A stretch of 64,000 nucleotides of DNA from Candidatus Levyibacteriota bacterium (GTDB taxonomy: Bacteria; Patescibacteriota; Microgenomatia; Levybacterales; GWA1-39-11). The notes beneath the pieces were generated by a model. It did not search any database. It saw only the letters and a program-made list of their open reading frames with translations, and had not been told where the DNA came from. The translations under genes and the position numbers were made by a program. The stretch spans positions 2,394 to 66,393 of the forward strand of contig DAIQMY010000002.1 of assembly GCA_036788695.1 (NCBI GenBank), given 5' to 3'. Below are positions 1 through 64,000 of the stretch, in pieces; the first letter of the stretch is position 1; each line of letters starts with the position of its first letter.

Positions 1-363
1 ACCACATGGAGTTTTCTTTTCGACTCGTATGGGAGAAAAACCTATGGATACATGCCATTTTATTGGGGATATCCTCAGAATGGTCAGTTTGGTGAAAATG
101 TGGTCTACAGTAAAGACTTTAAGGGATCGCAGGGTCTGATATTTTTAATTCATGAACCAAGTGACGGAATTCCTGACTTTTATAAAAACGGTATTATAAA
201 GTTTGAAAACACCAGGTCTAAAGTTATTAAGACAAAAAAATTTGGTGAATTTAACGTAGAAAAGAGAGTTATCACAGCGGATAAGCCATTTCTAAAAGAG
301 GAAATAGATGAAAGTATTAAAAATAATGACTTACGGGATGTTAAATTAGAAGGATTAGAATAA
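1..363 (+). CDS. Hypothetical protein, 5'-truncated (C-terminal fragment; the frame is open back to the window start)
   Basis: ORF 52..363 has no in-frame stop upstream back to nt 1. It encodes a hydrophilic Lys/Glu-rich tail, and I recognise no motif. Confidence 0.35.
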   Translation, partial: TTWSFLFDSYGRKTYGYMPFYWGYPQNGQFGENVVYSKDFKGSQGLIFLIHEPSDGIPDFYKNGIIKFENTRSKVIKTKKFGEFNVEKRVITADKPFLKEEIDESIKNNDLRDVKLEGLE

Positions 364-424
364 AGCACAACTTAAATCAGAACTTTTTGCTGATGATAGA
401 TTACTCGAATCTTTATTTTCTTCC

Positions 425-433
425 TGATATAAT
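425..433 (+). promoter_or_regulatory. Extended -10 element TGaTATAAT placed 7 nt before the ATG at 440, which would give a leaderless or near-leaderless transcript
   Basis: TG at 425-426 and TATAAT at 428-433. No SD fits between the -10 and the start codon at 440. Confidence 0.35.
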
Positions 434-439
434 ATTTAT

Positions 440-1186
440 ATGAAGATATCTGTTGTGATTCCCTCATACAATGAGATGGCAAACCTTCAAAAAGGAACAC
501 TTGAGAAGGTAGAGCGGTATATGGAGAGACGTAAGTTTCACTATGAAGTATTGGTGGTGGATGATGGATCGACAGACGGAAGCTTAGAGTTTGTAAAGGA
601 ATTTACCAATGAAAATCGTCAATTCAAATTAATTGAAAATTCGCATACAGGAAAAGCAGGAGCAGTTACCGCAGGAATGTTGAGAGCATCAGGAGACTTG
701 ATACTTTTTACTGATATGGATCAGGCAACTCCTATAACAGAACTTGAAAAGCTTATCCCATTTACAGAAAAGGGGTATGATATAGTAATAGGTTCCAGAA
801 GCACAACCAGAAGAGGCGCTCCGTTTACAAGAAAAATAATGAGTCAGGGAATGATTACCTTGAGATCACTTTTAGTAGGATTACCACAAATCCATGATAC
901 TCAGTGTGGGTTTAAGCTTTTCAAAAAAAAGCCGAGCGATAAGGTTTTTGAAAAAATAAAGAAAATCCATAAAGGATTTAAGTCAATTCATGGCTCGTCA
1001 GTTACGGCAGGGTTTGATGTTGAATTGTTATATATTGCGGAAAAATTTGGCTATAAAATAAAAGAAGTGCCAGTAGACTGGTTATACGTTGAGACCAGGC
1101 GGGTAAACCCAATATTTGATTCCATAGATGGGCTTATGGATTTAATAAGAATTAGACAAAACATCTTCAAGCGTGTGTATGATTAA
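440..1186 (+). CDS. GT2 polyprenyl-phosphate sugar synthase, DPM1/GtrB/CsbB-like
   Basis: N-terminus 'ISVVIPSYNE...VLVVDDGSTDGS...LFTDMDQATP'. The Rossmann GT-A fold carries a DxD motif ('TDMD'). The 248-aa length fits a soluble DPM1-like synthase. Confidence 0.85.
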   Translation: MKISVVIPSYNEMANLQKGTLEKVERYMERRKFHYEVLVVDDGSTDGSLEFVKEFTNENRQFKLIENSHTGKAGAVTAGMLRASGDLILFTDMDQATPITELEKLIPFTEKGYDIVIGSRSTTRRGAPFTRKIMSQGMITLRSLLVGLPQIHDTQCGFKLFKKKPSDKVFEKIKKIHKGFKSIHGSSVTAGFDVELLYIAEKFGYKIKEVPVDWLYVETRRVNPIFDSIDGLMDLIRIRQNIFKRVYD

Positions 1187-2348: not shown

Positions 2349-3472
2349 GAAATTTAAGAAACTTTTTTTTTCTATTACTTGTAATTATTTTTTTTGGAAA
2401 TCTGTTTTTCCGGGTTTCTTCATATCAAAAAGAATACACAACTCACTTTAACGCTGAATACTGGAGGGATAGATATTATGCTTCCCAGTGGGTGGTATCA
2501 AATTCTAAAAATCCAATTGGAGATGATGGGCTCTATGCGTATGTGGGGTGGGAGTATATTCACGGTGCAAATCCAACATTACTAAATGCTGAAATACCGC
2601 CCTTGGGGAAGTATATTATAGGAGCAGGGGAAGTAGTATTTGGAAACCAAAATATTCTTATTTTGATAATTGGAGTTTTGTGTCTTCTCGTTTTTTATCT
2701 GGTTAATGTGCGTCTCTTTAAAGATAAGCTGATCGCCTTTATTCCTGTGGTAATTTTTTCTTTTGATCCGATTTTTTATACGCAATTAAGAGCACCATAC
2801 CTTGATACAATATATTTGCTTTTTTTACTTTTAACTATCCTTTTTACTTTACACAAAAAATATTTTTTTGCAGCTTTCTTTTTGGGATGCTTTGCTTCCG
2901 TAAAGTTTCCCGCAGCATCAATTTTTTTGGTGGCACCTATGATGTTATGGGTTGCTATTTGGGATAGAAAGAATATGAAGAGATTTCTTGCGAGCTTAAT
3001 TTTGTGGCCAACAACGTTTATTCTATTTTATTTTCAATTTTTCCTACTGGGCGGAACACCTTATGCATTCTTAGGCGTTCAGAAATGGATAATCTCTTTT
3101 TATAGCATGGGCGCAAAGGCATCATATGGAATTGTTTATCCCATGATTTTATTTAACTCATGGAGTACCTGGTTTTCAGGAGTACAAAAAGTTTCCGAGT
3201 GGACACTCATCTGGCCGGTCAGTTTTATAGGTTCAGTATTTTCTGCAATTCCATTGCTGCGGATCGTATATGCGCATGTTTTCTTACATAAGAAAAAAGA
3301 AGTAGTGCCAGAAGACTATACTATGACACTTATTTTGTTTTGGGTGTTGTCTTATATGGTATTCTTGACAGTAACTCCAGTTTTCCCGCGATATCTGTTG
3401 CTTTTGCTTCCATTTATGTATAATCTAACAGTATGGTTTTTGGTAAAATACGTCTTTCGACAATCCTCATAA
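2345..3472 (+). CDS. Short PMT/GT39-like membrane glycosyltransferase (about 375 aa) with an 'HPPLGKY' motif; paralog of 19790..20929
   Basis: 'NAEIPPLGKYIIGAG' resembles the HPPLGK loop of protein O-mannosyltransferases. The protein is polytopic and overlaps the upstream stop in ATGA fashion. Confidence 0.5.
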   Translation: MRNLRNFFFLLLVIIFFGNLFFRVSSYQKEYTTHFNAEYWRDRYYASQWVVSNSKNPIGDDGLYAYVGWEYIHGANPTLLNAEIPPLGKYIIGAGEVVFGNQNILILIIGVLCLLVFYLVNVRLFKDKLIAFIPVVIFSFDPIFYTQLRAPYLDTIYLLFLLLTILFTLHKKYFFAAFFLGCFASVKFPAASIFLVAPMMLWVAIWDRKNMKRFLASLILWPTTFILFYFQFFLLGGTPYAFLGVQKWIISFYSMGAKASYGIVYPMILFNSWSTWFSGVQKVSEWTLIWPVSFIGSVFSAIPLLRIVYAHVFLHKKKEVVPEDYTMTLILFWVLSYMVFLTVTPVFPRYLLLLLPFMYNLTVWFLVKYVFRQSS

Positions 3473-4980
3473 TAATTCTTGTTGTTTCCCTCTACTTTGC
3501 GACACGCTTAATAAATATAATGGGTCTTCCGCTCTTCACAGACGAAGCAATCTATGTTAGATGGTCGCAAATAGCTCATCAAGACGCAGCATGGAGATTT
3601 ATTTCCTTAACTGATGGAAAACAGCCATTGTTTATTTGGATTGCAATGAATATCATGCGCAGGGTTACAGATCCTCTACTTGCGGCGAGACTTGTTTCTG
3701 TTTTTGCAGGCTTTGCGACTCTTATTGGTATAACTCTTTTAACGCTTGAGATTTTTAAGAAGAAAAGGAATGGGGGAATAATAAATCAAATATTTGGTCA
3801 TTTGCTTGAGAATAAGCGTGTGGGACTTATTGTGGCTATACTCTATGTTCTGTATCCCTTTGCTCTTGTGTATGACCGGATGGCACTTTATGACTCATTG
3901 GTTGCGTGCGTAATGGTGTGGGCGTTATTTATTGAGGTGCTCCTTGTTAGATATGTACGGCTTGATTTGGCCCTGATATTGGGAGTAGTTATGGGGAGTG
4001 CAGTTTTGACAAAAACGTCAGGTTTCTTTTCTTTGTATCTTCTTCCTTTCTCGCTTCTCATTTTTGATTTTAAAAAAACAGGTTGGAGAAAAAAAATAGT
4101 AGAGTGGATGATTTATGCAATAATCGCAGGTGCAGTTGCGTACCTTATATATATGGTGCTTCGTCTTTCCCCCTTTTTCTATATAGTTGACGAAAAAAAT
4201 GCATTATTTGTATACCCCTTTAAGGAATGGATTAAACATCCTTTTACATATGCTCTTGGGAACTTTAAGGGGCTTACTGATTGGTTATTAGCATACATTT
4301 CACTTCCCATCTTATTTCTTTTTTTCTTGTCTTTCTTTTTGGGAAAGAAATACTTTATGGAAAAATTACTTCTGCTTGCATGGTTTGCAATTCCATTTAT
4401 AGCACTAGGTGTTTTTGGCAAGCTAGTTTATCCTAGATTTATTTTATTCATGACAATGCCAATACTTGTTTTGTCTGCATATTCTATAAATTTTTTGTTT
4501 GAAAAAATAAAAAATAAATTATTCTTTTTTGCATTTTTTACAGCAGTAGTATCATTTTTTGCTTACTCAGATTATTTTATTATTACTGACTTGTCCCGTG
4601 CACCTATTGCAAGTCCAGATCTTGGACAATATATTAATTCGTGGCCAGCCGGAGGAGGAGTTAAAGAGATGGTATCTTTTTTTGATCAAGAATCCAAGAA
4701 AGGGAAAATCTATGTTGCGACTCAGGGAACGTTTGGAAGTCTGCCAACCTACGCGCTTGAAATTTATCTGAATGAAAACAAAAATATTGAAAAGAGGGGA
4801 ATCTACCCGCTTCCCTCAGATTTACCAAGAGATCTGAAGGAGAAAGCATCAAAAATGAATGTATATTTTGTTTTTAATGATTCGGAAGATGCGCCGCCTT
4901 TGTGGCCGTTGACGCTTGTTGCAAAATATCAAAAAGGAATTGGTGATAGACACATGAGTATTTATAAAGTAAATCCGTGA
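3433..4980 (+). CDS. ArnT/GT83-like (PMT_2 superfamily) GT-C glycosyltransferase
   Basis: The loop 'LPLFTDEAIYVRWSQ' after TM1 is a DE-A-xY acid motif, as in ArnT/PMT. It is a 515-aa polytopic protein. Confidence 0.55.
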   Translation: MVFGKIRLSTILIIILVVSLYFATRLINIMGLPLFTDEAIYVRWSQIAHQDAAWRFISLTDGKQPLFIWIAMNIMRRVTDPLLAARLVSVFAGFATLIGITLLTLEIFKKKRNGGIINQIFGHLLENKRVGLIVAILYVLYPFALVYDRMALYDSLVACVMVWALFIEVLLVRYVRLDLALILGVVMGSAVLTKTSGFFSLYLLPFSLLIFDFKKTGWRKKIVEWMIYAIIAGAVAYLIYMVLRLSPFFYIVDEKNALFVYPFKEWIKHPFTYALGNFKGLTDWLLAYISLPILFLFFLSFFLGKKYFMEKLLLLAWFAIPFIALGVFGKLVYPRFILFMTMPILVLSAYSINFLFEKIKNKLFFFAFFTAVVSFFAYSDYFIITDLSRAPIASPDLGQYINSWPAGGGVKEMVSFFDQESKKGKIYVATQGTFGSLPTYALEIYLNENKNIEKRGIYPLPSDLPRDLKEKASKMNVYFVFNDSEDAPPLWPLTLVAKYQKGIGDRHMSIYKVNP

Positions 4981-7325
4981 GTAAGACTATTAAGAAATTA
5001 TTTATTCCGTGTATTTTGGTCATTATACCTCTGCTGTTTTTTTATAAAACAGTTGTATTTCAAAAAGTACCCTTTCCAGGAGATTTATTAGTTGGGAATT
5101 ATGAGCCCTATAAGTCAAACCCTAGTATAGGTGTAGCTCCGCATAAAGGACAAGGGGCAGATGTTGTGCGGGAACTCTATCCATGGAAGTTTTATACAAT
5201 TGATAGTTTAAAAAGTGGATTCTTTCCTCTCTGGAATCCTTATACTTTCTCAGGTAATCCTCACTTTGCCAATCTTCAATCAGGGGTATTATATCCGGTA
5301 AACATTCTATTTTTTATTCTTCCATATGTTCCTGCATGGACAATTTATATTATCCTACAGTTTGTGTTTCTAATGTTTTTCACATATTTATTTTTAAGAC
5401 AGATTAATCTATCAAAGGTAGCAAGTCTATTTGGATCAATTGCCTTTTCCTTTTCAGGGTTTATCACAGTTTGGGCCTGGTACGGAAATCTTGGTCATGC
5501 GTTGGCATTTCTTCCGCTCGTTTTTTATCTTATTGAAAAGATTTATAAACAACCCAAATGGTATTTATTCCCTTTTTTAATATGCGCATTAGTGTTTTCT
5601 ATCTTTGCAGGATACATACAGTATGTTATGTATATATATCTACTTTCATTTGCATATATATTTACACGATCCATTACGCAAAAGAAAAAAAGCTTAAAGC
5701 TTTTACTACTACTTATTTCCTGCTTTGTGATGGCAGGGCTACTTGGTGCAGTGCAACTTTTCCCGGTATTTGAGTTAGTAAATAACTCACTTCGCTCAAC
5801 ATATTCCTATCAGGTGTTACTTGAGAGGTTAATGCCTCCAGAGAGTATGATTACGTTGCTTGTACCTGATTTTTTTGGAAATCCCGCAACCATGAATTAT
5901 TTTCTTCGTGGTGGATCAAGTCTTGAGCGGGCAAGTTCTATTGGGGTTTGGCCACTTTTTTTTGTAGTGGTTGCGCTGTTTAGTAAAAAAACATTTTTTA
6001 GAAATTACTTTGCAATATCAGCACTGGTGATTTATATATCCGTTTTATCAATTCTTCCCATAGCATATTTTCACAGCATTGGGATCCCTTTTTTATCAAC
6101 AGGAATTCCAACACGGGCATTGTCTATTTTCTGTTTTTGTATGGCAGTTTTAAGTGCAATAGGTATGAATTCTTTTGTGAGGAATGAAGTGAGTAAAAAA
6201 ACGGTCGTTAAAATACTTATAGTTTTTATGAGTGTATTTGTTGGATTGTGGACTGTAACGTTTGTAAATCAGGACCCACATATGCTTATCTCAAGGAGAA
6301 ATTTAATTATTCCCACCCTCATTTTTACGATAGGAGCTTTCACACTCATGCTAAAGTTTAAAAAAAATAAACTTGCAGCATTCATTATCTTATTAACACT
6401 TGCAGAACTATTTTATTACTTTCAAAAATTTAATTCGTTTGTCCCCGTATCATATGTATATCCCTCATCGCAAATAACTGAAAAACTAAGATCTATACAA
6501 GGTATAGATAGGTTTTGGGGATATGGAAGTGCAAATATTGACTCAAATTTTCAATTGATTGAAAAAAACTATACAACTGCTGGGTATGATGCAATTTTTA
6601 GTAAAAGATATGGTGAATTTACCGCCGCCTCACATAACGGGAAAATCCCTCTGGAGGTACCGCGTTCTGTAGCAGATATTGTGGGAGGGTATGGGGTAAA
6701 TGACTTAAAGCAAAATCCTTATAGGCAGCGTGCACTAGATATAGCAGGGGTAAAATATGTCCTAAACAAAAAGGAAGATAAGGGGTTGGATAGCGCATTT
6801 GATACAAGAACGTATGATTTGATTTGGGAGGATGGCGGGTGGCAGATATACCTTAATAAAAACGTAGTGCCTAGGGTTATGCTAGTTGGTGACTATAAAA
6901 TAATAAAAAATAAAGAGGAGATAATAAAAAATCTGTATAATTTAAGGCTAAATCCTAGAGAGACTATTACCCTCGAAGAAAAATTACCGGGAAAAAGTAT
7001 AAAAACAGATGTAAGTGCAAAAGTTAGCGTAGAGAAATATAGTCCTAATAATATAATATTAAAAACCGAATCCAAAGAAGATCAAATAGTATATATTTCT
7101 GATAATTATTTTCCGGGTTGGCATGCAATTGTTGACGGAGTAGAGAAAAAGATATATCGGGCTAACTATACATTTAGAGCCATACCGGTTGAAGCAGGAA
7201 GGCATACAGTTTACTTATACTATTTCCCTGAATCATTAAAACTTGGTCTTATTGTAAGTATTTTTTCGTTTCTGTGTTTGATATTAATATGTCTCTTTGT
7301 TACGATAACTAAACAAAAACGGTAG
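4977..7325 (+). CDS. YfhO-family GT-C glycosyltransferase (paralog E1 of 3)
   Basis: N-terminus 'FPGDLLVGNYEPYKSN...WNPYTFSGNPHFANLQSGVLYP'. The 782 aa comprise a polytopic core, a C-terminal 'YFPGWHAIVDG...GRHTVYLYYFP' module and a final TM helix. The GTG start overlaps the upstream TGA as GTGA. Confidence 0.7.
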   Translation: MSKTIKKLFIPCILVIIPLLFFYKTVVFQKVPFPGDLLVGNYEPYKSNPSIGVAPHKGQGADVVRELYPWKFYTIDSLKSGFFPLWNPYTFSGNPHFANLQSGVLYPVNILFFILPYVPAWTIYIILQFVFLMFFTYLFLRQINLSKVASLFGSIAFSFSGFITVWAWYGNLGHALAFLPLVFYLIEKIYKQPKWYLFPFLICALVFSIFAGYIQYVMYIYLLSFAYIFTRSITQKKKSLKLLLLLISCFVMAGLLGAVQLFPVFELVNNSLRSTYSYQVLLERLMPPESMITLLVPDFFGNPATMNYFLRGGSSLERASSIGVWPLFFVVVALFSKKTFFRNYFAISALVIYISVLSILPIAYFHSIGIPFLSTGIPTRALSIFCFCMAVLSAIGMNSFVRNEVSKKTVVKILIVFMSVFVGLWTVTFVNQDPHMLISRRNLIIPTLIFTIGAFTLMLKFKKNKLAAFIILLTLAELFYYFQKFNSFVPVSYVYPSSQITEKLRSIQGIDRFWGYGSANIDSNFQLIEKNYTTAGYDAIFSKRYGEFTAASHNGKIPLEVPRSVADIVGGYGVNDLKQNPYRQRALDIAGVKYVLNKKEDKGLDSAFDTRTYDLIWEDGGWQIYLNKNVVPRVMLVGDYKIIKNKEEIIKNLYNLRLNPRETITLEEKLPGKSIKTDVSAKVSVEKYSPNNIILKTESKEDQIVYISDNYFPGWHAIVDGVEKKIYRANYTFRAIPVEAGRHTVYLYYFPESLKLGLIVSIFSFLCLILICLFVTITKQKR

Positions 7326-9012: not shown

Positions 9013-9023
9013 GGTATTTGCAT

Positions 9024-14797: not shown

Positions 14798-14829
14798 TAT
14801 TCAGTTTGCTAGTAAAGTTCTACCTTATC

Positions 14830-24264: not shown

Positions 24265-24294
24265 TTGAAAGGGGAAAATTAAAAAAGGTAAAAT
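24265..24294 (+). promoter_or_regulatory. Sigma70-like promoter TTGAAA-18 nt-TAAAAT ending 6 nt before the ATG at 24301, which would place the TSS at or next to the start codon
   Basis: -35 TTGAAA at 24265-24270 and -10 TAAAAT at 24289-24294. There is no room for an SD. Confidence 0.35.
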
Positions 24295-54836: not shown

Positions 54837-55968
54837 ATTTCCGCGAAATCTATCAAAAAAGAGTAAAAGACTTATTCAAGACAACTATATATATTCTTCA
54901 GTATTGTTTTGTACAGCAGATCCAACAAAAGATGCTGGTGGAATAGCTAAATATTTTGTTGCTCGTTCAAAGATATGTATGACGTTTTACTTTCCTCTTG
55001 GTTACATGTCAAAGCCAACATATTTTAGAAAATATAAGATGGGAGTCCTAGAGTCTGAAAAAATATTCCATTCTTATACAGGGAGAAACACATTTATAAA
55101 AAATATTCAGAATTACTTATTTTTCATTTACTGTTTGTTATTTTTTGTTCCAAGAAAAACTTTTATACTTACGAATGCTCCTATATATTGTTTCGGGTAC
55201 TTCATTTTTGCATTCATAAAATTGCATAAATATATATTATGGCTAGGTGATTATTATCCTCAAAAAAGCATTTTTATTTATTTACACAACATCTTTATAG
55301 ATTATCTAAATAAAAATCTCCAATATGTTTTATACATAAGTCCACCGCTGAGTAGGCTTTACGAGTCTAAAAGAAGAAATAAAAAATATACAAAAGTTAT
55401 ACAACTCGGCATGGAGAATGAAAAAATTACGTATAAAAAAAATAAATCTAAAATAAAACTTGGATTTATCGGGATATTACGAAACCAACAAGGGATAGAA
55501 CTAGCATTTTCGTATTTAGCCTTACATAAAAATATTTCACTTGATATAGTTGGTGGTGGATATTGGCTAGCTTACTATAAGAAATTAGCGCGTAAATTGA
55601 ATATTAACAGTAGAGTTACTTTTTACGGAAGCGTTGATGATGTATCTACTATTTTTCAAAAATGGGATATTGGAATAGCATTATATGAGGATACCGTTGA
55701 TAACCTCTCAAGGTATTGTGAGCCGACAAAATTGAAAAAGTATCTGTCATATGGTCTTCCGGTCATAACTACACGTGCAACATATTTTAGTAGAGAGATA
55801 GAAGAAAGTGGTGTTGGAGTTGTAATAGATGAAAATACTTATTCACTAGGTGTCGCAATTAAAAATATTATTTTAAATTATGATACGTACCAACATAAAA
55901 TTGGTAAATTACTTAAGAAATATGAATATGTTTCATGGTATGACAAAAAATTTGCATTTATGAGATAA
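54826..55968 (+). CDS. GT4-like glycosyltransferase (K4)
   Basis: The C-terminal 'KLKKYLSYGLPVITTRATYFSREIEESGVGVVID' fits GT-B, but the N-terminal half is atypical. Confidence 0.55.
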   Translation: MSNKFPRNLSKKSKRLIQDNYIYSSVLFCTADPTKDAGGIAKYFVARSKICMTFYFPLGYMSKPTYFRKYKMGVLESEKIFHSYTGRNTFIKNIQNYLFFIYCLLFFVPRKTFILTNAPIYCFGYFIFAFIKLHKYILWLGDYYPQKSIFIYLHNIFIDYLNKNLQYVLYISPPLSRLYESKRRNKKYTKVIQLGMENEKITYKKNKSKIKLGFIGILRNQQGIELAFSYLALHKNISLDIVGGGYWLAYYKKLARKLNINSRVTFYGSVDDVSTIFQKWDIGIALYEDTVDNLSRYCEPTKLKKYLSYGLPVITTRATYFSREIEESGVGVVIDENTYSLGVAIKNIILNYDTYQHKIGKLLKKYEYVSWYDKKFAFMR

Positions 55969-56070: not shown

Positions 56071-57090
56071 ATGAAAAAAATAATTTATCCGTCAGTTTCT
56101 ATTGTAATCGCAACATTTAATTCTTCGAGAACACTTGAGCTATGTCTAAAGAAGGTGAATGAGCAAGATTACTCTAAGAAGGATATTGAAATAATTACGG
56201 CAGACGGCGGATCAACTGATAATACAAGATCTATAGCAAAGAAATTTGGTGCAAGAATAATTAAGGTTGACCCAAAAAAGCAAAATGCGGAATACAACAA
56301 AGCAATTGGGCTTGCGAATTCGCAAAATGACATAGTATTATTTCTAGATCACGATAATATCATCCCGCATCCGAACTGGCTTAAGAATCTTATTTTACCA
56401 CTAGTAATTGATCGAAAGCTTGTAGGTTCTGAGCCTGCACGATTTCATTATGATCCCTCAATGACAGTACTGGATCGTTATATAGCATTAATTGGCGGTT
56501 CTGATCCAGTTGTCTATTATTTAGGTAAAGATTCGCACTTAAGTTATGCCGCAAAAACATATAATTTATTAGGCAAGGCTAAAGATATGGGATCTTACTA
56601 TAAGGTTATATATTCAAAAAAAGGAATACCAGCATTGGGAGGAAATGGTGCCGCACTAGTTAGAAAAAAACTTTTAAAATATACAAAGTGTGATCCCGAA
56701 AATTTTACACATACAGATGTGGTGGCTGATTTGATCCGATCTGGTAATAATAATTATGCTATTGTTAAAGACACGATAATACATCTAACGAACGATAAGT
56801 TTTTCCACTTTCTTAAACGAAGAAAATATTTTATAGAAAAATATCAACCTGAGAATGAGTATAAAAGACGATATTATATTTATGATCCTCATTTTGACAA
56901 AAAAAAATTATTGTTATATATTCTATTTTCTCTAACATTCATTGTTCCAACATGGGATGCGTTGAAAGGTTTTTATAAGGTTCATGATTTTGCGTGGTTT
57001 TTACACCCTATCATGTGTTTTGTATTCTTAATGTTGTATGCCCCTCCAGCTTTTAAGGGTGGGGTGAGGCAGGTAATTTTTGGAAAATAA
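56071..57090 (+). CDS. GT2 glycosyltransferase
   Basis: 'VSIVIATFNSSRTLELCLKKV...IITADGGSTDNT...LFLDHDN'. It is preceded by a 102-bp intergenic region with a TATACT -10-like element and an AGAGG SD. Confidence 0.75.
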   Translation: MKKIIYPSVSIVIATFNSSRTLELCLKKVNEQDYSKKDIEIITADGGSTDNTRSIAKKFGARIIKVDPKKQNAEYNKAIGLANSQNDIVLFLDHDNIIPHPNWLKNLILPLVIDRKLVGSEPARFHYDPSMTVLDRYIALIGGSDPVVYYLGKDSHLSYAAKTYNLLGKAKDMGSYYKVIYSKKGIPALGGNGAALVRKKLLKYTKCDPENFTHTDVVADLIRSGNNNYAIVKDTIIHLTNDKFFHFLKRRKYFIEKYQPENEYKRRYYIYDPHFDKKKLLLYILFSLTFIVPTWDALKGFYKVHDFAWFLHPIMCFVFLMLYAPPAFKGGVRQVIFGK

Positions 57091-57092: not shown

Positions 57093-58037
57093 ATGAAAAA
57101 GCGCAATTTTTGGAATAAAAAAAAGGTTTTAATTACTGGTTCCGGAGGATTTGTAGGAACCCATTTAAAAGAAAAGTTGAGGAAGCTAGGAGCTGATGTA
57201 TATGGTGTATCAAGATCCTCTAGTGACAAGCATGATTACAAAGAGAATATTACTAATCTGTCTGCGGTTGAGGGAATCATCAAAAAGAATCGTATTCAAA
57301 TCTGCTATCATTTAGCAGCTGAGGCATTAGTAGAATCAGGTCAAAGTGATCCATATAACACTTTTAAAAATAATATTACTGGTGCGTTAAATGTTCTTGA
57401 ATGCTCAAGAAAATATAATCTTGAAAAAATTATAATCGCATCCACGTCACATGTATACGGAGATCATAAACCACCATATCTTGAAAGATTTTCTCCTAGG
57501 CCGTCAAGACCATACGAAACTTCAAAAACATGTATTGATTTAATTGCACAGAGCTATGCAAATACATTTTCTCTTCCTGTTATAATACCGCGTTTTGTAA
57601 ACACATATGGTCCTGGAGATACTAATTTTAATCGTCTTATACCTAAGACAATCAAAAGCATTTTAGAAAATAAACCCCCGCTTATGTGGGGTGGAAAAGC
57701 AAGACGAGACTATTTATATATTGATGATGTTATTTCAGCGTATACATTGTTGGGAGAGACAAAAATGGAAAAATTTGGGAAAAACAGAATATATAATTTT
57801 GGAAGTAATAATATATATTCTGTCCAAGAGATAATTGAAATTTTGATTAAGATGTCAGGAAAAGACTTGGAAATTGTGAGAAAAAAAGATGAAAGGGATT
57901 TTGAGATAAAAATTCAGTTCTCTTCTTTTAAAAAAGCAAATAGAATATTGGGTTGGAGTCCAAAATTTTCTATAGACCGGGGCCTATTGCTTACAATTCC
58001 ATGGTACAAGAAAAACCTTAATAAGATCATAAAATAA
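57093..58037 (+). CDS. NDP-hexose 4,6-dehydratase-like SDR, closest to the CDP-glucose 4,6-dehydratase (RfbG/DdhB) family
   Basis: The N-terminus 'RNFWNKKKVLITGSGGFVG' resembles DdhB 'NSFWQGKRVFVTGHTGFKG'. It also carries 'HLAAEALVESGQSDPYNTFKNNITGALNVLE' and the catalytic 'YETSK'. Confidence 0.55.
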   Translation: MKKRNFWNKKKVLITGSGGFVGTHLKEKLRKLGADVYGVSRSSSDKHDYKENITNLSAVEGIIKKNRIQICYHLAAEALVESGQSDPYNTFKNNITGALNVLECSRKYNLEKIIIASTSHVYGDHKPPYLERFSPRPSRPYETSKTCIDLIAQSYANTFSLPVIIPRFVNTYGPGDTNFNRLIPKTIKSILENKPPLMWGGKARRDYLYIDDVISAYTLLGETKMEKFGKNRIYNFGSNNIYSVQEIIEILIKMSGKDLEIVRKKDERDFEIKIQFSSFKKANRILGWSPKFSIDRGLLLTIPWYKKNLNKIIK

Positions 58038-58059: not shown

Positions 58060-58707
58060 ATGAATAATCAAAAAAAAATAGATAGAGGCATAGTTATTAT
58101 TGGAGGTTCTTCCGGTGCGTTGATAGCTGAAGAAATTTTTGAGAGTCAATACGAAAGAATCTTTTTTCTTGAAACGTACTCAAAATCAGTTGTGAAAAGT
58201 AGAATTATTGCAGATACGATTACGAAAGGATTAGACTATTTAAAGAAAAGAGATGTAGAGTATTTTATCGCGACGGGTGATAATAAAAAACGCCAAGAAA
58301 ATTTTCAATTAATTTACAAGCATATTAAGAAGTACCCGGTTAATTGTATTCATGAAAGTGCATATGTCTCAAAAAGCAGCAGTATAGGTTATGGCAATCT
58401 CATTTGTCCTAAAAGCGTAATTCATACAAACGCGTCGATTGGAAATAATACAATTATAAACACCGCTTCCGTTATTGAGCACGATGTTATTGTTTCTGAC
58501 TATGCTCAAATATCTCCAAATGCGACACTCGCAGGAAGGGTAGTTGTGGGAAGGGGTGCATTTCTAGGAGTTGGGAGTGTCGTTATCCCAGATATTAAGA
58601 TAGGAGAATGGGGAGTAATTGCTGCAGGAGCTGCAGTTATAAGCAGCACAAAGAGGAACGCATTATATGCAGGTGTTCCTGCGGTTTATAAAAAAGATTT
58701 AAAATGA
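58060..58707 (+). CDS. Sugar N-acetyltransferase, NeuD/PglD family (left-handed beta-helix)
   Basis: N-terminal Rossmann-like 'IVIIGGSSGALIAEEI' followed by hexapeptide repeats 'IGNNTIINTASVIEHDVIVSDYAQISPNATLAGRVVVGRGAFLGVGSVV'. Confidence 0.75.
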   Translation: MNNQKKIDRGIVIIGGSSGALIAEEIFESQYERIFFLETYSKSVVKSRIIADTITKGLDYLKKRDVEYFIATGDNKKRQENFQLIYKHIKKYPVNCIHESAYVSKSSSIGYGNLICPKSVIHTNASIGNNTIINTASVIEHDVIVSDYAQISPNATLAGRVVVGRGAFLGVGSVVIPDIKIGEWGVIAAGAAVISSTKRNALYAGVPAVYKKDLK

Positions 58708-59843
58708 AAATTCCAATATTTAAACTTGAGTTTGAAAAAGAATTTATTTCAAAATACCTGAGGGGATGTGAGGAGATTTTAACTTCAAACAGACCACTTG
58801 GTGAAGACAAGTATGTTTCTGAATTTGAGCAGAAATTTGCAAAGCTTGTAGGGGCTAAATATGCCTTGGCTACAACAAACGGGACAAGTGCCCTAGAGCT
58901 TGCCTTAAGATGCGTAGATGTAAAGGGCAAGACGGTAATTATTCCTACGAACACGTTTAGCGCTACATCTATCGCGGTATCAAATGCGGGCGGATCATTT
59001 TCTCTTCTTGATATTGAAGAAAATTATTTTTCTTTTTTGCCTGCAGTTTTAGAAAAAGAAATTCTTCGTTTAAAAAAGAAAAAAGAAAAAATTGGAGCAG
59101 TAATTGTTGTTCATATTGGTGGGATTATTACAACAAATATTGCAGGGATAGTATCTGTATGTAGAAAACACAAAGTCCCTCTTATTGAGGATGCGGCACA
59201 TGCACATCTATCACAATATAAAAATTTTAAAGCAGGAACAATAGGTGTTTTTGGCTGCTTTAGTTTTTTCCCAACAAAAGTTATGACAACGGGAGAAGGA
59301 GGAATGATTACGACTAATAGTAAAAAAATGTTTTCACATGCAAAGTCTCTTAAAAATTTTGGCAGAGACAGTAATAACATAGACCTCATAATAAATGAGA
59401 AAGGTGATAATTTTAAAATGAATGAGGTAACTGCACTTTTGGGTTCACTAGAGTGTGATAGGGTATTTAAAAGGGTAGAAAAAAGAAATATGTTAACGGA
59501 TATGTATGTAAACCTTTTGAGAGGATCTTCTTATATTCCTGTTTTGCAAGATGCTGGTCTTTCTTCACAATACAAAATGATACTAAAAACAAAAATAAAA
59601 CAAGAGAAGCTTAAGCCGTTTTGTAAAGCAAATGGAATTTCACTTACTGGTGAAGTTTATAAAATACCTATACATCAGCAGCCTATATACAAAAAATTAT
59701 TCAAACACCAAAAATTTCCAAATTCAGATAGAATTTCTCAGTATCACATATGTCCACCATTGTATCCTGAGCTTACTGTTGCAGAGGTAAAGTATATCTG
59801 CAAAACGTTAATACGTGCAGAAAAAGCGTTTTTAAAAAAATGA
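58704..59843 (+). CDS. DegT/DnrJ/EryC1/StrS-family PLP-dependent sugar aminotransferase
   Basis: 'ALATTNGTSALELAL' and 'FSFFPTKVMTTGEGGMITTN' with the PLP-binding Lys. There is an ATGA overlap. Confidence 0.85.
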   Translation: MKIPIFKLEFEKEFISKYLRGCEEILTSNRPLGEDKYVSEFEQKFAKLVGAKYALATTNGTSALELALRCVDVKGKTVIIPTNTFSATSIAVSNAGGSFSLLDIEENYFSFLPAVLEKEILRLKKKKEKIGAVIVVHIGGIITTNIAGIVSVCRKHKVPLIEDAAHAHLSQYKNFKAGTIGVFGCFSFFPTKVMTTGEGGMITTNSKKMFSHAKSLKNFGRDSNNIDLIINEKGDNFKMNEVTALLGSLECDRVFKRVEKRNMLTDMYVNLLRGSSYIPVLQDAGLSSQYKMILKTKIKQEKLKPFCKANGISLTGEVYKIPIHQQPIYKKLFKHQKFPNSDRISQYHICPPLYPELTVAEVKYICKTLIRAEKAFLKK

Positions 59844-60865
59844 AAAACAAAATAGTAAAATTAGAAAAAGTAGGTAAGATTAAAATCTATGAAGAAGATA
59901 TGCCTTCTCTTAAAGAAGGTGAGGTGTTGGTGGAGATTAAAGCCGTAGGAATTTGTGGTTCTGACATGCATTATTTTTTGCACGGTGGTTTAGGAAGCTT
60001 TAAGCAAAAAATGCCTATGGAAATGGGACATGAAGCAGCGGGAATAGTTATTGATTCATTTGATAAGAATATATTTAAGAAAGGAGATCGTGTTGCAATT
60101 GAACCAGGAAAACCATGTCTTGTCTGCGAATGGTGCTTAAAGGGGAAACACAATTTGTGCAAAAACGGAACATTCATGGGAGCAAATGCTAAAGGAGCAC
60201 TTGCGACATATGTGATTGTTCATCAAATTCAACTAGAAAAAATGCCTAAGAGTATGTCATTCGAAGTTGGTGCTCTTATGGAGCCGTTAGGAGTAGGTCT
60301 CCACGCAGTAAATTTGGTAAATCCTAAAAGTACAAAAAATGCAGCAATTATAGGTGCTGGTCCAATTGGTCTTTCAGTACTTTTTATCTTAAAGAAAATG
60401 GGATTTTCTCAGATATATATGGTAGATAAATTGCCATATCGTGTAAAATTTGCAAAGAAAATGGGAGCAACTAAAACGTTTCTTTTTAAAGAAGCTTTGC
60501 AAAAAATAAAAAATATAACAAATGGAGATGGAACAACATACGTATTTGATACAGGCGGAGCGCAAGATTCAGTAAATTTATGTGTTGACATAGTTAAAAC
60601 ATCAGGAACAATTGCACTTGTAGGCATTCCAGATGTTGATTTTATAAATTACAATCCACACAAGTTACGAACAAAGGAAGTAACTATCAAAAATATAAGA
60701 AGGTCAAATCAAACACTAGGGGACTGTGTAAAAATGTTCTCAAATGATAAAAACTTAGAAAAACTGATAACACATACGTTTAGATTTGAAAAAGCACAAA
60801 ACGCATTTAATTTAGTGAGCAAGTACAAGGGGAAAGTTATAAAATGTGTCGTTGTTAGAGGATAG
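59840..60865 (+). CDS. Zn-dependent medium-chain dehydrogenase (threonine/sorbitol dehydrogenase-like)
   Basis: 'AVGICGSDMHYF', 'GHEAAGIV' and the 'CLVCEWCLKGKHNLC' structural-Zn Cys cluster, plus the Rossmann 'IIGAGPIGL'. Confidence 0.8.
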   Translation: MKNKIVKLEKVGKIKIYEEDMPSLKEGEVLVEIKAVGICGSDMHYFLHGGLGSFKQKMPMEMGHEAAGIVIDSFDKNIFKKGDRVAIEPGKPCLVCEWCLKGKHNLCKNGTFMGANAKGALATYVIVHQIQLEKMPKSMSFEVGALMEPLGVGLHAVNLVNPKSTKNAAIIGAGPIGLSVLFILKKMGFSQIYMVDKLPYRVKFAKKMGATKTFLFKEALQKIKNITNGDGTTYVFDTGGAQDSVNLCVDIVKTSGTIALVGIPDVDFINYNPHKLRTKEVTIKNIRRSNQTLGDCVKMFSNDKNLEKLITHTFRFEKAQNAFNLVSKYKGKVIKCVVVRG

Positions 60866-60886: not shown

Positions 60887-61897
60887 TTGAAGAAATATCC
60901 TAATACTGCTAATATTACTTCTATGAAAAAGTCAGTTGCAAAAAAAGCATTAGTTCTTGGAGCGGGTGGATTTATTGGATCTCATTTGGTTCATTTATTA
61001 AAGAAGAAAGGATACTTTGTTCGAGGTGTTGATTTGAAGTACCCAGAGTTTAGCAAAACAGTTGCTGATGATTTTGTGGTAGGCGACTTGCGAGACATAA
61101 ACTTTATGAGGAAAGTATTTGGTAAGTTTGATGAGGTATATCAGTTGGCTGCAGATATGGGGGGTGCAGGATACATATTTACTGGAAAGAATGATGCTGC
61201 AATAATGCGTAATTCTGCACAGATAAATTTAAATGCCCTTGAGTTAATGGTTGAAACCAAAGCAAAAAAGATTTTCTATTCATCTTCTGCATGTATTTAT
61301 CCTGAATACAACCAAAAAAGCCCTATTGATCCAAAAACCTCTGAAGATTCAGCTTATCCCGCTGCCCCAGATAGTGAATACGGATGGGAGAAACTATTTA
61401 GTGAAAGGATGTTTCTTGCGTATCACAGAAATTATGGTATTAAAGTTAGAATTGCAAGATTCCACAATATATTTGGCCCTGAAGGGGTATGGAGAGGTGG
61501 TAAGGAAAAGTCCCCAGCTGCAATTTGCAGGAAAGTAGCAGAAACTCCAAATGGGGGTACGATCGAAATATGGGGAGACGGAAAACAAACGCGATCTTTT
61601 CTTTACATAGACGAGTGTTTAAAGGGGATTCGTCGGCTGATGGATAGTAATTTTGTAGGACCGGTAAATATAGGTTCTGAGGAGATGATTTCCATAAATG
61701 ATCTTGCTCTGATGGTTATGGGGATTGCAGGGAAGAAGTTGAAGATGAAACATATAAAAGGCCCCCTGGGCGTAAGAGGTCGAAAGTCAGACAATGAATT
61801 AATCCGCAAAAAGTTAAGATGGGAACCTTCTATGCCTCTAAAGGATGGGATAGTTAAAACATATGCATGGATTTCAACACAAGTAAATAAAAAATAG
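60887..61897 (+). CDS. gme: GDP-mannose 3,5-epimerase (GME) homolog
   Basis: Blocks match plant GME closely by eye: 'LAADMGGAGYI', 'SSSACIYPEY', 'SAYPAAPDSEYGWEKL', 'RIARFHNIFGPEGVWRGGKEKSPAAICRK', 'IWGDGKQTRSFLYIDEC', 'PVNIGSEEMISIN' and 'GVRGRKSDNELIRKKLRWEP'. The start may be ATG 60923. Confidence 0.85.
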   Translation: MKKYPNTANITSMKKSVAKKALVLGAGGFIGSHLVHLLKKKGYFVRGVDLKYPEFSKTVADDFVVGDLRDINFMRKVFGKFDEVYQLAADMGGAGYIFTGKNDAAIMRNSAQINLNALELMVETKAKKIFYSSSACIYPEYNQKSPIDPKTSEDSAYPAAPDSEYGWEKLFSERMFLAYHRNYGIKVRIARFHNIFGPEGVWRGGKEKSPAAICRKVAETPNGGTIEIWGDGKQTRSFLYIDECLKGIRRLMDSNFVGPVNIGSEEMISINDLALMVMGIAGKKLKMKHIKGPLGVRGRKSDNELIRKKLRWEPSMPLKDGIVKTYAWISTQVNKK

Positions 61898-62829
61898 TGA
61901 TTAAAGCAATTGTTACCACAACTATAAACCCTCCCAGTGAAGCTCTTAAACTTTTTTCCGAAAAAAAAGATTGGAGTTTAATTATCATAGGAGACAAAAT
62001 TACCCCACACAATCTTTTTAGGAATTTTGAAAAAAAATGCAAGAATGTGCGATATTTATCTCCTGAAGATCAAGATAAAAAATATCCAAAACTGAGTAAG
62101 GCAATTGGATGGAGGAAGATACAGAGAAGAAACATTGGGTATTTAGAGGCGTATGAGATGAAGGCAGATGTTATTGCGACAGTAGATGACGATAATATTC
62201 CTTTGTTGGATTGGGGTAAAAATCTTTTTTTAGATAAAGAAGTTTTAGTAAATTATTACAAGACACGTCTGAGTTCATTTGATCCGGTTGGAGTAACTAA
62301 TTATCCGAACCTATGGCATAGAGGCTACCCCCTCCAGTTAATAACAAAAAGGGACTATTCAAATAAAATAAAAAAACATATAAAAGCAGCTATTCAGGCA
62401 GATTTCTGGAATGGTGATCCAGATATTGATGCTGTTTGCAGGTTAACTTTTGCACCTGATTGTCTGTTTCAGAATAAATATTTCCCTATATCTTCCAACA
62501 AAATTTCACCCTTTAACTCTCAAAACACATTTCTCACTAGGGAGGTTTTAAAGCACTATTTTCTGTACCCAGATATTGGAAGAATGGATGATATTTGGGC
62601 ATCTTTTTATGTTCAGTCATTAGGTTTTAAAATAGTGTATGGTAAGCCAAGTGTTACGCAGTTAAGAAACATTCACGATCTTACAAAGGATATGAGAGCC
62701 GAGTATATTGGGTATGAAAAGAATCAAGAGCTGGTAGAAGCGTTATCAAAAAACCCTGATGCGATATATGACTATCTTCCAAAGAGTGCAATAAATGCGT
62801 TTAAAATCTATTTACGGTATTTTAAGTGA
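61897..62829 (+). CDS. Putative GT-A-like glycosyltransferase with a DDD motif (RGP/GT75- or DUF288-like); uncertain
   Basis: 'IVTTTINPPSE' and 'VIATVDDDNIPLLDW' resemble the 'IFTIDDDCFV' of reversibly glycosylated polypeptide / UDP-arabinopyranose mutase and DUF288 proteins. The GTG start overlaps the GME stop by 1 nt. Confidence 0.35.
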   Translation: MIKAIVTTTINPPSEALKLFSEKKDWSLIIIGDKITPHNLFRNFEKKCKNVRYLSPEDQDKKYPKLSKAIGWRKIQRRNIGYLEAYEMKADVIATVDDDNIPLLDWGKNLFLDKEVLVNYYKTRLSSFDPVGVTNYPNLWHRGYPLQLITKRDYSNKIKKHIKAAIQADFWNGDPDIDAVCRLTFAPDCLFQNKYFPISSNKISPFNSQNTFLTREVLKHYFLYPDIGRMDDIWASFYVQSLGFKIVYGKPSVTQLRNIHDLTKDMRAEYIGYEKNQELVEALSKNPDAIYDYLPKSAINAFKIYLRYFK

Positions 62830-62835
62830 AAACTC

Positions 62836-63546
62836 ATGAGGAAACAGAAAATTCTAGAAATAGGGTGTGGTCAGGGATTTAATACTTATATATTATCAAA
62901 AAATAAACTAAACACGGTGACTGGAATTGATTTGTCAACTGTGGATATTAAAATAGCAAGACAAAGATATCCGGGGATAGATTTTAAAAAGATGAATGCT
63001 GAAAGACTTGTATTTAAAAGAGATGCATTTGACGTTGTGATAGCGCTGCAAATTCTTGAGCATGTAGACAATTTAGATAAAGTCTTAGATGAAATTGTGC
63101 GTGTATTGAAATTTAAAGGTAGATTGGTGGCTAGTATTCCCTTTTATACATCAGAGAAGTGGCTTCTTCGCGTGAGGCCAACTTACTTTAAAGAAATTCA
63201 TCATGTCAGAATTTTTAAAAAAAATGAGCTAGAGAGAATTTGTCAATATAAAGGGTTAGCTCTAGTCAAAAAGAAAAGAGTAGGATTTTTACAGCACATA
63301 GAATTATACCTGTTGTTTAAGCGAAAAATTAACTCAAACAATCAGACAAGTATTGGAAGTTGGAGAGATACATTCTGGACTAAGACAGTTCACGCGATAA
63401 TGCTTTTTTTTGATCCTATTTGCTTGCAGACCCCACTGAAGTATTTTCCATTATGGATTATAGCAATTCCATTCGGGTTTATGATAAATTTTGCAGGCAA
63501 TATATTTTTTCCTAAGTCACTTGATTATGAATTCATTAAAAAATAA
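62836..63546 (+). CDS. Class I SAM-dependent methyltransferase
   Basis: 'ILEIGCGQGFNTYIL' (motif I) and 'FDVVIALQILEHVDN'. Confidence 0.7.
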   Translation: MRKQKILEIGCGQGFNTYILSKNKLNTVTGIDLSTVDIKIARQRYPGIDFKKMNAERLVFKRDAFDVVIALQILEHVDNLDKVLDEIVRVLKFKGRLVASIPFYTSEKWLLRVRPTYFKEIHHVRIFKKNELERICQYKGLALVKKKRVGFLQHIELYLLFKRKINSNNQTSIGSWRDTFWTKTVHAIMLFFDPICLQTPLKYFPLWIIAIPFGFMINFAGNIFFPKSLDYEFIKK

Positions 63547-64000
63547 GAACAGAGTATCCGTTGTGATTGTAAATTGGAATGGAAGGAAATGGCTTAAGAA
63601 ATGTCTTAGTTCGCTTTCAAATCAGTCATATAAAAATGTGGAGATTTTAATTGTTGATAACGCCTCTTCTGATGATTCTGTAGGCTATATGAGAAAGTAT
63701 TTTCCAGATGTAAAAATTATACAAAATAAAGCAAATCTGGGTTACCCAAAAGCAGTAAATATTGGGATAAGAAAAAGTAGCGGTGAGTATTTATTATTAA
63801 TTAATAACGATGCATGGGTAGATAAAAAATTTATTGAGAATTTATTTAATTTTTATAATAGCAATTCTTATTCAGTTATTTCTCCTATCTCAAGAAGATA
63901 TAACGGGAAAGCAGCAGGTAATATGTTACCAAGTATTGATCCCACAGGGACGCCTGCATATTTTTTCCCAATAACAAAAAGAAATAAATTATTTTTCTTA
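63527..64000 (+). CDS. GT2 glycosyltransferase, 3'-truncated at the window end
   Basis: It is not in the ORF track because it has no stop in the window. The ATG at 63527 reads 'MNSLKNKNRVSVVIVNWNGRKWLKKCLSSLSNQSYKNVEILIVDNASSDDS...LLLINNDAW'. It overlaps the upstream gene by 20 nt. Confidence 0.7.
   Translation, partial: MNSLKNKNRVSVVIVNWNGRKWLKKCLSSLSNQSYKNVEILIVDNASSDDSVGYMRKYFPDVKIIQNKANLGYPKAVNIGIRKSSGEYLLLINNDAWVDKKFIENLFNFYNSNSYSVISPISRRYNGKAAGNMLPSIDPTGTPAYFFPITKRNKLFFL

Follow-up and report, generated by a model that had tools for sequence, protein, structure and literature searches.

What does a bacterium with a small genome build when it keeps some two dozen membrane glycosyltransferase genes in a single array? 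The question is raised by a 64-kb stretch (the whole of it is hereafter the window) of contig DAIQMY010000002.1, assembly GCA_036788695.1, in which a first-pass annotation, made from the letters alone, had recognised a dense, co-directional row of GT-C membrane glycosyltransferases. According to our analysis, the window probably forms the central part of a super-operon for cell-envelope glycan assembly that is conserved in Candidatus Levybacteria and exceeds 75 kb, and that would serve stepwise extracytoplasmic assembly or decoration from polyprenyl-phosphate sugars together with a Wzx-dependent oligosaccharide branch.

The window holds 53 genes, 51 on the plus strand and two on the minus strand, exactly as first counted. 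Fifty are open reading frames (ORFs) that encode 150 aa or more, all but one of them on the plus strand; the other three are a 75-aa ORF (23989-24216) and two genes cut by the window ends, an upstream one present with its 3' part (1-363) and a downstream GT2 gene present with its 5' part (63527-64000). A hydropathy scan found 26 polytopic proteins with at least six transmembrane (TM) segments, and two of these are Wzx flippases. The remaining 24, with 6-13 hydropathy peaks each, are GT-C candidates, in agreement with the first-pass estimate; they cover 38,895 bp, or 60.8% of the window. All-vs-all BLASTP returned the same paralogue groups that had been proposed, namely F (six members), G (four), E/YfhO (three), M (three), B and C (two each) and four singletons. 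Genes are named below by their left-hand coordinate, and the 24 candidates are as follows.

7336-9012, plus: family F (PMT_2, DE motif); PF13231 29.8 bits, BLAST
9009-10718, plus: family F (PMT_2/PMT), with an (AT)5 tract; Pfam
31301-33016, plus: family F; PMT_2 40 bits
32985-34637, plus: family F; PMT_2 50 bits
34591-36264, plus: family F; PMT 36 bits, PMT_2 30 bits
36254-37945, plus: family F; PMT_2 37 bits
10715-12346, plus: family G (PTPS_related); PF10131 44.3 bits
12355-14100, plus: family G; PF10131 24.3 bits (sub-threshold), BLAST 1e-79 to 18141
18141-19793, plus: family G (YfhO/PTPS_related/PMT_2); Pfam
46613-48250, plus: family G (C-terminal part of YfhO/PTPS_related); Pfam
4977-7325, plus: family E, YfhO; PF09586 122 bits
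20926-23241, plus: family E, YfhO; PF09586 102 bits
25371-27599, plus: family E, YfhO; PF09586 66 bits
37938-39437, plus: family M; PMT_2 23.7 bits (sub-threshold), hhalign M to F 94%
39434-41029, minus: family M, the sole large minus-strand gene, weak Agl23-like match; PMT_2 23.6 bits, TIGR03663 38.6 bits
41757-43238, plus: family M; BLAST 7e-47 to 37938
1173-2348, plus: family B, MptA/MptB-like (GT87-like) polyprenol-P-mannose-type transferase; GT87 24.6 bits, MptB 40.3 bits (cut-off 40), crt_membr 71 bits (cut-off 439), PF26314
45513-46616, plus: family B, MptA/B-like; of the MptB/MptA-type models only crt_membr (37 bits), PF26314
2345-3472, plus: family C, 375 aa, GDDG motif; AlphaFold2 model, Foldseek, hhalign
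19769-20929, plus: family C paralogue, PDET motif; BLAST 3.6e-34 to 2345, member of the family C alignment
3433-4980, plus: singleton, GT39/ArnT-like, TDE motif; homologues about 55% identical with PMT_2/PMT
29305-31314, plus: unclassified GT-C, predicted multi-TM core (13 hydropathy peaks) and C-terminal globular domain, oligosaccharyltransferase (OST)/ALG12/AftA-like fold; AlphaFold model
49224-50402, plus: singleton, PIG-V-like, NFDGKFYLNIAQYGY motif; PF04188 in 18 of 39 homologues, PMT_2 in 5
53511-54836, plus: singleton (PMT_2, FDE motif); PMT_2 36 bits

Paralogues within a group share only 24-36% identity, which indicates old duplications and not a recent amplification. The claim of at least eight families stands for sequence clusters, of which there are nine at E<1e-5 since E and G join, and does not hold at the Pfam level, where about five groups are left. 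Every family has a conserved acidic residue after TM1, as had been noticed from the letters: in F, G, E, M, B and C it is a family-invariant D/E lying 15-45 residues past TM1, and the singletons have matching motifs. The motifs read DE in F, 3433 and 53511, HD in G, P-x-D in E, D-x-x-R-D in M, Y-D-x-F-N-Y in B, GDDG/PDET in C and FDG in 49224, with D141 in 29305. Judging from the family, these first-loop residues would face the outside of the membrane.

The assignment of the set to GT-C draws on evidence of several kinds. Fifteen of the 24 candidates either reach a curated Pfam/NCBIfam threshold or carry a precomputed Pfam domain (PMT_2/PMT, YfhO, PTPS_related or MptA/B-GT87). Pfam cut-offs are reached or exceeded by 13: all six F members and 53511 with PMT_2/PMT, 10715 with PTPS_related, and the three E members, 18141 and 46613 with YfhO; the PF09586 matches of family E are full-length against a cut-off of 28.5 bits. 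Both family B proteins carry the precomputed PF26314 MptA_B_family domain. Four candidates come in by a sub-threshold match or strong paralogy, 12355, 37938 and 39434 lying just under the cut-off (39434 is also a paralogue of 41757, BLAST 1e-8) and 41757 being placed by paralogy. Two more (3433 and 49224) are supported via homologues that carry PMT_2 or PIG-V, and three (2345, 19769 and 29305) by two AlphaFold models with pLDDT of 90-92, both helical bundles; the PDB structures that match these models best are GT-C enzymes throughout. Scanned directly against Pfam/NCBIfam, 2345, 3433, 19769, 29305 and 49224 gave nothing useful even when thresholds were permissive. Profile-profile comparison with hhalign links C, M, F, B and 53511 at 83-94% probability and G with E at 98.7%, while Wzx controls stay below 1%. 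Against the PDB, the only match of the family F profile was ArnT (5ezm), and a marginal one (E 0.004); 29305, family C, 49224, the YfhO family and family B had no match in these profile searches.

A transporter reading of the 24 was considered and rejected: no transporter family was matched except by the two Wzx proteins, and weak matches to antiporter, cytochrome and DUF4131 profiles lay far under their cut-offs. Pfam/NCBIfam profiles, hhalign, the domains of homologues and the fold searches all led to GT-C. Such evidence, from profiles and predicted folds, supports regarding the 24 polytopic proteins as candidate GT-C-type glycosyltransferases and not as transporters. The same evidence bears on a conventional Wzx/Wzy-dependent capsule or O-antigen-like cluster, a reading that would turn many of the polytopic proteins into Wzy-type polymerases, ligases or transporters. 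Two Wzx genes together with GT2, GT4 and nucleoside diphosphate (NDP)-sugar modification genes are typical of such clusters, and 49224, lying between a GT4 and a Wzx gene, stands where a polymerase is usually found and has a weak match to a family labelled "cell surface glycopolymer formation". However, the polytopic proteins of the window gave no hit to Wzy_C, O-antigen ligase or EpsG profiles (EpsG came closest, at E 2.7), profile and fold matches go instead to ArnT, PMT, YfhO, OST, ALG and Aft enzymes, and 24 polymerases or ligases would be far more than the one or two that a single cluster needs at most. We therefore regard this explanation as very improbable.

The members without a direct profile match deserve separate comment. 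The ArnT-like and PIG-V-like labels given to 3433 and 49224 in the first pass hold through homologues and not through any direct profile match. More than 2,500 homologues of 3433 are known, and those about 55% identical to it carry PMT_2/PMT and are named GT39/ArnT family. The family of 49224 is large (9,057 representatives at E up to 1e-3); of 39 sampled homologues, 18 have PIG-V (PF04188) and five PMT_2. An invariant F-D-G-x-x-Y motif lies directly past its TM1, and codon 19 or 25 is probably its real start. Family C is connected to F, M and B by hhalign at 83-93% probability (Wzx controls below 1%), and among 39 homologues only two have a weak PMT match. The model of 2345 (pLDDT 92.3) finds ArnT (TM-score 0.57), Pmt4 (0.63), STT3, PglB, ALG9/12, PIG-M, PimE and AftB as its best PDB matches in Foldseek.

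The singleton 29305, to which the first pass had given no family, has a predicted GT-C fold with OST-like architecture: a 13-TM core is followed in the model by a periplasmic AglB-like C-terminal domain, as in STT3, AglB and PglB. Residues CC135-136, D141, NYHY170-173 and R184 are invariant in the family, which so far occurs in Patescibacteria-type metagenome contigs; homologues with a name belong to Patescibacteria or Gottesmanbacteria, and PF20176 is present in one homologue. The WWDYG motif defines OST. No WWD or WW motif occurs anywhere in 29305, 37 homologues show no conserved equivalent, and no STT3 Pfam match was obtained for the protein; the absent motif rules out a true OST. We propose the family of 29305, on the strength of the model, as a candidate for a new, unclassified GT-C family with OST-like architecture.

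GT2 genes number ten and GT4 genes four, besides one truncated GT2 and one doubtful ORF. Four of the GT2 proteins, of about 240 aa (440, 14051, 28548 and 51639), form one BLAST group and correspond to the four DPM1-like donor synthases of the first pass. All four match the AglJ, ArnC, PgfS, Dol-P-hexose transferase and PpgS models nearly full length and below the equivalog cut-offs. The best PDB matches of 28548 are the Pyrococcus furiosus Dol-P-Man synthase 5mlz (E 7e-20, residues 1-209), then ArnC and GtrB. For soluble glycosyltransferases besides these four, about 13 had been announced; we count 10-12 (six GT2, four GT4, the truncated GT2 and the doubtful ORF). We also considered 56071 as a GtrB-like donor synthase and found no support for it: the protein has two C-terminal TM segments, yet only generic GT2 matches. 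Both Wzx flippases, 14806 and 50408, were recovered by MOP/Wzx profile matches. The other features of the window are listed here.

1-363, plus: 3' end of a 537-aa GT-C-like gene that opens the locus and begins upstream of the window; 11 TM, weak PMT_2, related to families M/F
440-1186, plus: GT2, 248 aa, polyprenyl-phosphate sugar synthase-like (DPM1/ArnC/PgfS-like), first of four; Pfam, NCBIfam, BLAST group with 28548
14051-14797, plus: GT2, DPM1/ArnC/AglJ-like, second of four; Pfam, NCBIfam
14806-16311, plus: Wzx/MOP flippase; Polysacc_synt_3 158 bits, MOP flippase/TuaB/O-glycosylation flippase models
16308-17219, plus: GT2, 303 aa; Pfam
17221-18138, plus: GT2, rhamnosyltransferase-like; Pfam, NCBIfam
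23238-23984, plus: GT2, 248 aa; Pfam
23989-24216, minus: 75-aa two-TM ORF
24301-25374, plus: GT4 (Glycos_transf_1); Pfam
27583-28551, plus: GT2, 322 aa; Pfam
28548-29261, plus: GT2, DPM1-like, third of four, closest to Dol-P-Man synthase/AglJ/ArnC; PDB matches as above, AglJ 118 bits
41123-41764, plus: S-adenosylmethionine (SAM)-dependent methyltransferase; Pfam
43255-44028, plus: GT2, 257 aa; Pfam
44036-45010, plus: UDP-glucose 4-epimerase GalE; TIGR01179 364 bits (cut-off 262)
45007-45516, plus: DUF5667 protein, 169 aa; Pfam
48260-49321, plus: GT4; Pfam
50408-51667, plus: Wzx-like flippase (Polysacc_synt); PF01943 51 bits
51639-52403, plus: GT2, DPM1-like, fourth of four; Pfam, NCBIfam
52403-53524, plus: GT4; Pfam
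54826-55968, plus: GT4; Pfam
56071-57090, plus: GT2 with two C-terminal TM segments, generic GT2; hydropathy, Pfam
57093-58037, plus: NDP-hexose 4,6-dehydratase-like short-chain dehydrogenase/reductase (SDR); Pfam, NCBIfam
58060-58707, plus: NeuD/PglB/VioB-family sugar N-acetyltransferase; TIGR03570 166.5 bits (cut-off 160.8)
58704-59843, plus: DegT/PseC/LegC-like sugar 4-aminotransferase; Pfam, NCBIfam
59840-60865, plus: Zn-dependent alcohol/sugar dehydrogenase; Pfam, NCBIfam
60887-61897, plus: SDR epimerase/reductase (GDP-fucose-synthase-like); Pfam, NCBIfam
61897-62829, plus: soluble protein, weak STELLO-like match (E 0.014); profile scan
62836-63546, plus: SAM-dependent methyltransferase; Pfam
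63527-64000, plus: 5' part of a GT2 of 325 aa; neighbouring assemblies

The sugar-nucleotide genes of the window (GalE, the 4,6-dehydratase-like SDR, the NeuD/PglB/VioB-family N-acetyltransferase, the PseC/LegC-like 4-aminotransferase, the Zn-dehydrogenase, another SDR and two methyltransferases) suggest an N-acetylated 4-amino-4,6-dideoxyhexose. A further set beyond the right end, an FdtA-hexapeptide fusion and a DegT protein, is of the kind typical of 3-acetamido-3,6-dideoxyhexoses; both sugar identities are read from gene families and are to be taken as putative.

Is such an array real? An assembly artefact, i.e., a chimeric, collapsed or expanded contig that concatenates paralogues, has to be considered for a metagenomic source, where repeated paralogues can mislead assemblers. 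However, an identity of 24-36% between paralogues is far too low for misassembly, and GC content is uniform at 0.32-0.36 all along the window. Contigs from independent samples span the whole window at 99.98-100% identity (ENA ERZ794922 NODE_1 of 491 kb, ERZ27240680 and several Logan assemblies), and each probe gene finds the same neighbourhood on 5-13 contigs from independent assemblies. Gene order is repeated in the closest other genome (L007), which is 82.6% identical at the nucleotide level and collinear over the first 20.7 kb, with orthologues at 78-96% aa identity. The concern about a chimeric contig thus finds no support, and we give an artefact practically no chance.

A protein 100% identical to 2345 has been deposited as Candidatus Levybacteria bacterium, and relatives are from Levyibacteriota and Microgenomates. 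The contig therefore belongs to Candidatus Levybacteria (Microgenomates, candidate phyla radiation (CPR)), in line with the CPR/Patescibacteria-like lineage guessed from the letters. A Levyibacteriota metagenome-assembled genome (L008) keeps the gene order at 53-78% aa identity and has one extra M-family gene. On contig L010, ten of 15 genes are GT-C genes, and seven GT-C genes occur on L013. In Ca. Microgenomatus (L012), seven tandem family F genes are followed by a GT2, a GT4, a PIG-V-like gene and a Wzx gene. Collinearity in related genomes and identical independent assemblies show the array to be genuine, of old date and typical of the lineage instead of a single strain. It should be mentioned that the Levybacteria/Microgenomates-like contigs L007, L009, L010, L011 and L013, which come from binchicken co-assemblies, are titled "uncultured Gammaproteobacteria bacterium", probably a mislabelled taxon.

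The locus extends past both ends of the window, comprising at least 26 GT-C-like genes over more than 75 kb; our walk outwards covered up to 10 kb. On the left it starts one gene upstream, with the 537-aa GT-C-like gene, and a divergent rhodanese gene further upstream forms its left border. On the right, at least 10 kb more contain a GT2, the FdtA-hexapeptide fusion, DegT, a GT2, a methyltransferase, a 763-aa GT-C-like protein and further genes. The 763-aa protein (L018 16935-19226, about 7 kb past the window end) begins with ten TM segments, GGDD following the first, continues in a large extracytoplasmic region and ends in a TM anchor. It has no Pfam match; with its YfhO/AftD-like architecture, it is probably another GT-C. 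A 338-aa membrane protein comes after it. Just upstream of the border rhodanese gene, ERZ27240680 has a large serine recombinase (Resolvase/Recombinase/Zn_ribbon_recom; L016 2829-4433), where ERZ794922 has GIY-YIG and aldo-keto reductase genes; the left flank thus varies between strains.

Packing within the window is operon-like, neighbouring genes mostly overlapping or lying at most 10 bp apart. Only three intergenic gaps reach 93 bp or more (316, 93 and 102 bp), and no tRNA was found in the window. The 316-bp gap, the only large one, contains the 75-aa two-TM minus-strand ORF 23989-24216. The best sigma-70-like site of a scan of 23-42.5 kb (24265-24294) lies directly upstream of the plus-strand GT4 gene 24301, and the gap may be a transcription-unit boundary; the promoter/terminator scan of that region was itself uninformative, promoter-like sites being fewer than in shuffled sequence. 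The (AT)5 tract at 10460-10469, within the family F gene 9009-10718, is (AT)4 in ENA ERZ794922 NODE_1, the sole difference in 11.2 kb. The shorter tract shifts the frame of the gene and leaves ORFs of 490 aa and 59 aa, for which slipped-strand phase variation, a pseudogene in that strain or a misassembly could account. The DUF5667 protein sits among glycosyltransferase genes, translationally coupled to GalE and a family B GT-C; a role as accessory or acceptor would be pure speculation.

The genes present and their assignment to families and folds are directly established, as are the contiguity, lineage and conservation of the array, and on this basis we propose the following scenario. Cytoplasmic enzymes (GalE, 4,6-dehydratase, 4-aminotransferase, N-acetyltransferase and methyltransferases, with FdtA/DegT downstream) would produce unusual NDP-sugars, and the four DPM1/ArnC/GtrB-like GT2 proteins would load single sugars on polyprenyl phosphate. 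Ordinary GT2 and GT4 enzymes would build one or two oligosaccharides on a lipid carrier for export by the two Wzx flippases. Outside the membrane, about 25 GT-C enzymes of about nine sequence families would each transfer a lipid-linked sugar or sugar block, making one specific linkage, to a growing polymer, a lipoglycan or a surface protein. It is from family knowledge that we infer polyprenyl-phosphate donors, extracytoplasmic action and one linkage per enzyme, and the conclusion of the first-pass annotation, an elaborate glycan to which sugars are added one at a time outside the membrane, is a reasonable inference of the same kind. With four donor synthases for about 25 GT-C proteins, it would be the acceptor or the linkage, and not the donor, that distinguishes most of the latter. 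It is tempting to speculate that 29305, with its OST-like architecture, and 49224, which adjoins a Wzx gene, transfer or ligate Wzx products en bloc.

Several observations weigh against this scenario. The DPM1-like GT2 proteins are without the C-terminal TM helices of PfDPMS, GtrB and ArnC, the hydropathy scan showing no TM segment in any of the four. TM-less members do exist, such as human DPM1 and the mycobacterial Ppm1 catalytic domain, so the missing helices do not exclude donor-synthase activity. A small flippase of the GtrA/GtcA type (PF04138) was not found in the window, where the tight packing leaves no room for one, the 316-bp gap with its 75-aa ORF being the only unassigned space. 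The window also contains no priming phosphoglycosyltransferase (PF00953/PF02397), Wzy polymerase, chain-length regulator (Wzz), LytR-CpsA-Psr (LCP) ligase or obvious acceptor protein; Wzy, the initiating phosphoglycosyltransferase and the chain-length regulator could be located elsewhere in the genome. Several GT-C assignments are by sub-threshold or transitive evidence, and models cover two of the 24 candidates (2345 and 29305). Finally, PIG-U is among the fold matches of 2345, and some GT-C-fold proteins elsewhere are polymerases, ligases or non-catalytic, so the paralogues need not all be sugar-adding enzymes.

A rival reading is a protein-glycosylation toolkit, in which the GT-C paralogues would mainly be protein glycosyltransferases of the PMT/ArnT/OST/DPY19 type, each with surface proteins of its own to modify (S-layer, pilins, adhesins), instead of working jointly on one polymer. 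In its favour, PMT_2/PMT profiles are matched by most families, and Wzx 14806 weakly matches an O-glycosylation flippase model. However, the PMT_2 profile is broad and also takes in enzymes that modify lipid A and polysaccharides, 29305 is without WWDYG, and the small DUF5667 protein is the only candidate acceptor protein within the window. Relatives of YfhO and MptA/B, in addition, act on teichoic acids and lipoglycans (PMC5836110; NCBIfam names). We hold the toolkit to be rather unlikely, and keep to stepwise assembly of an envelope glycan. A bolder version of the latter, which we offer tentatively, is that Microgenomates/Levybacteria build their main envelope glycan, or heavily glycosylate surface proteins, almost wholly outside the membrane via a super-operon of more than 25 GT-C genes, as a bacterial counterpart of the endoplasmic reticulum (ER)-lumen and mycobacterial pathways in a genome of likely about 1 Mb. 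The family of 29305 would then be an unrecognised OST-like GT-C family without WWDYG, perhaps acting in en-bloc transfer of a Wzx-exported oligosaccharide.

We found no description of GT-C arrays in CPR bacteria in the literature; the only related mentions, made in passing, are of Peregrinibacteria with multiple Dol-P-Man-synthase-like genes (PMC4736985) and of a saccharibacterium with PIM-type genes (PMC6031116). All parts of the locus belong to known enzyme superfamilies, its logic is known as well, and no new mechanism is revealed. What is new is the density (about half of the genes and 61% of the bases), the co-directional super-operon, its conservation in a reduced-genome CPR lineage and one unclassified OST-like GT-C family. 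Other phyla, such as Actinomycetota and Chloroflexota, are also rich in GT-C paralogues, which tempers any claim of uniqueness. The composition of the CPR/Patescibacteria cell envelope is essentially uncharted, and these organisms live attached to other cells, so the surface is probably central to their biology. The Levybacteria genome is small, with largest contigs of about 0.5-0.6 Mb, and the window alone makes up 13% of the 491-kb contig. Yet it devotes more than 75 kb to enzymes with a predicted role in extracytoplasmic glycosylation. The array is conserved in Levybacteria and echoed in other Microgenomates, which argues that surface glycan complexity is under strong selection in this lineage. 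The four donor synthases and about nine GT-C families offer targets for heterologous biochemistry, the OST-like family is a subject for structural study, and the array may supply markers from which the capacity of uncultured bacteria for envelope glycosylation could be read.

How does the locus compare with known systems? One logic, by which a lipid-linked donor is made, flipped and used outside, runs through ArnC/ArnT, through Ppm1 with MptA/B/PimE/Emb/Aft and through DPM1 with the ALG/PMT/PIG enzymes. It is also that of multi-component transmembrane glycosylation in Firmicutes, e.g., CsbB/GtcA/YfhO, where a CsbB/GtrB-type GT2 makes the polyprenyl-P-sugar, a GtcA/GtrA flippase turns it over and YfhO or another GT-C transfers the sugar outside the membrane, decorating lipoteichoic and wall teichoic acids or cell-wall polysaccharide (PMC5836110, PMC8035078). 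As there, polyprenyl-P-sugar synthase-like GT2 genes adjoin GT-C genes in the Levybacteria locus, and the window has three bona fide YfhO members and four YfhO/PTPS_related relatives. Whereas each known Firmicutes system uses a single GT-C, with a handful of them in a genome, the Levybacteria locus has at least 26 GT-C genes for four donor synthases, and its window is without a GtrA/GtcA flippase and has TM-less GT2 proteins.

The ArnT/ArnC system for lipid A aminoarabinose shares PMT_2/GT39-83-like proteins with the window; homologues of 3433 bear the ArnT family name, and the small GT2 proteins have ArnC among their best matches. No other arn genes (e.g., ArnA, ArnD) were identified in the window, however, the likeness to ArnT is at the superfamily level only (E 0.004), and to our knowledge, CPR bacteria are expected to lack lipid A.

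A further parallel is the arabinogalactan and lipomannan/lipoarabinomannan pathway of Corynebacterineae (PimE, MptA, MptB, MptC, AftA-D and EmbA-C, with Ppm1/DPA donors), where many GT-C enzymes extend glycans stepwise outside the membrane from polyprenyl-P-sugars, as those of the Levybacteria locus would do. Of family B, 1173 lies right at the cut-off of the MptB model and 45513 matches crt_membr below its cut-off, and AftA, AftB, AftD and PimE are among the fold matches. In mycobacteria, the pathway is distributed among several loci, and the genome is about four times larger. Sequence similarity is marginal, the phylum is different and nothing in the Levybacteria locus points to arabinose or mannose chemistry.

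The last comparison is with the eukaryotic ER lumen, with its ALG3/9/12/6/8/10, OST, PMT, DPY19 and PIG-M/V enzymes. The Levybacteria locus is bacterial, single and operon-like, none of its members is orthologous to the eukaryotic enzymes, and 29305 is without WWDYG. Nevertheless, DPM1-type synthases would feed a series of GT-C enzymes as they do in the ER, the top structural matches are ALG12, STT3, ALG9, PMT, PIG-M and DPY19, and a PIG-V-like member lies within the window.

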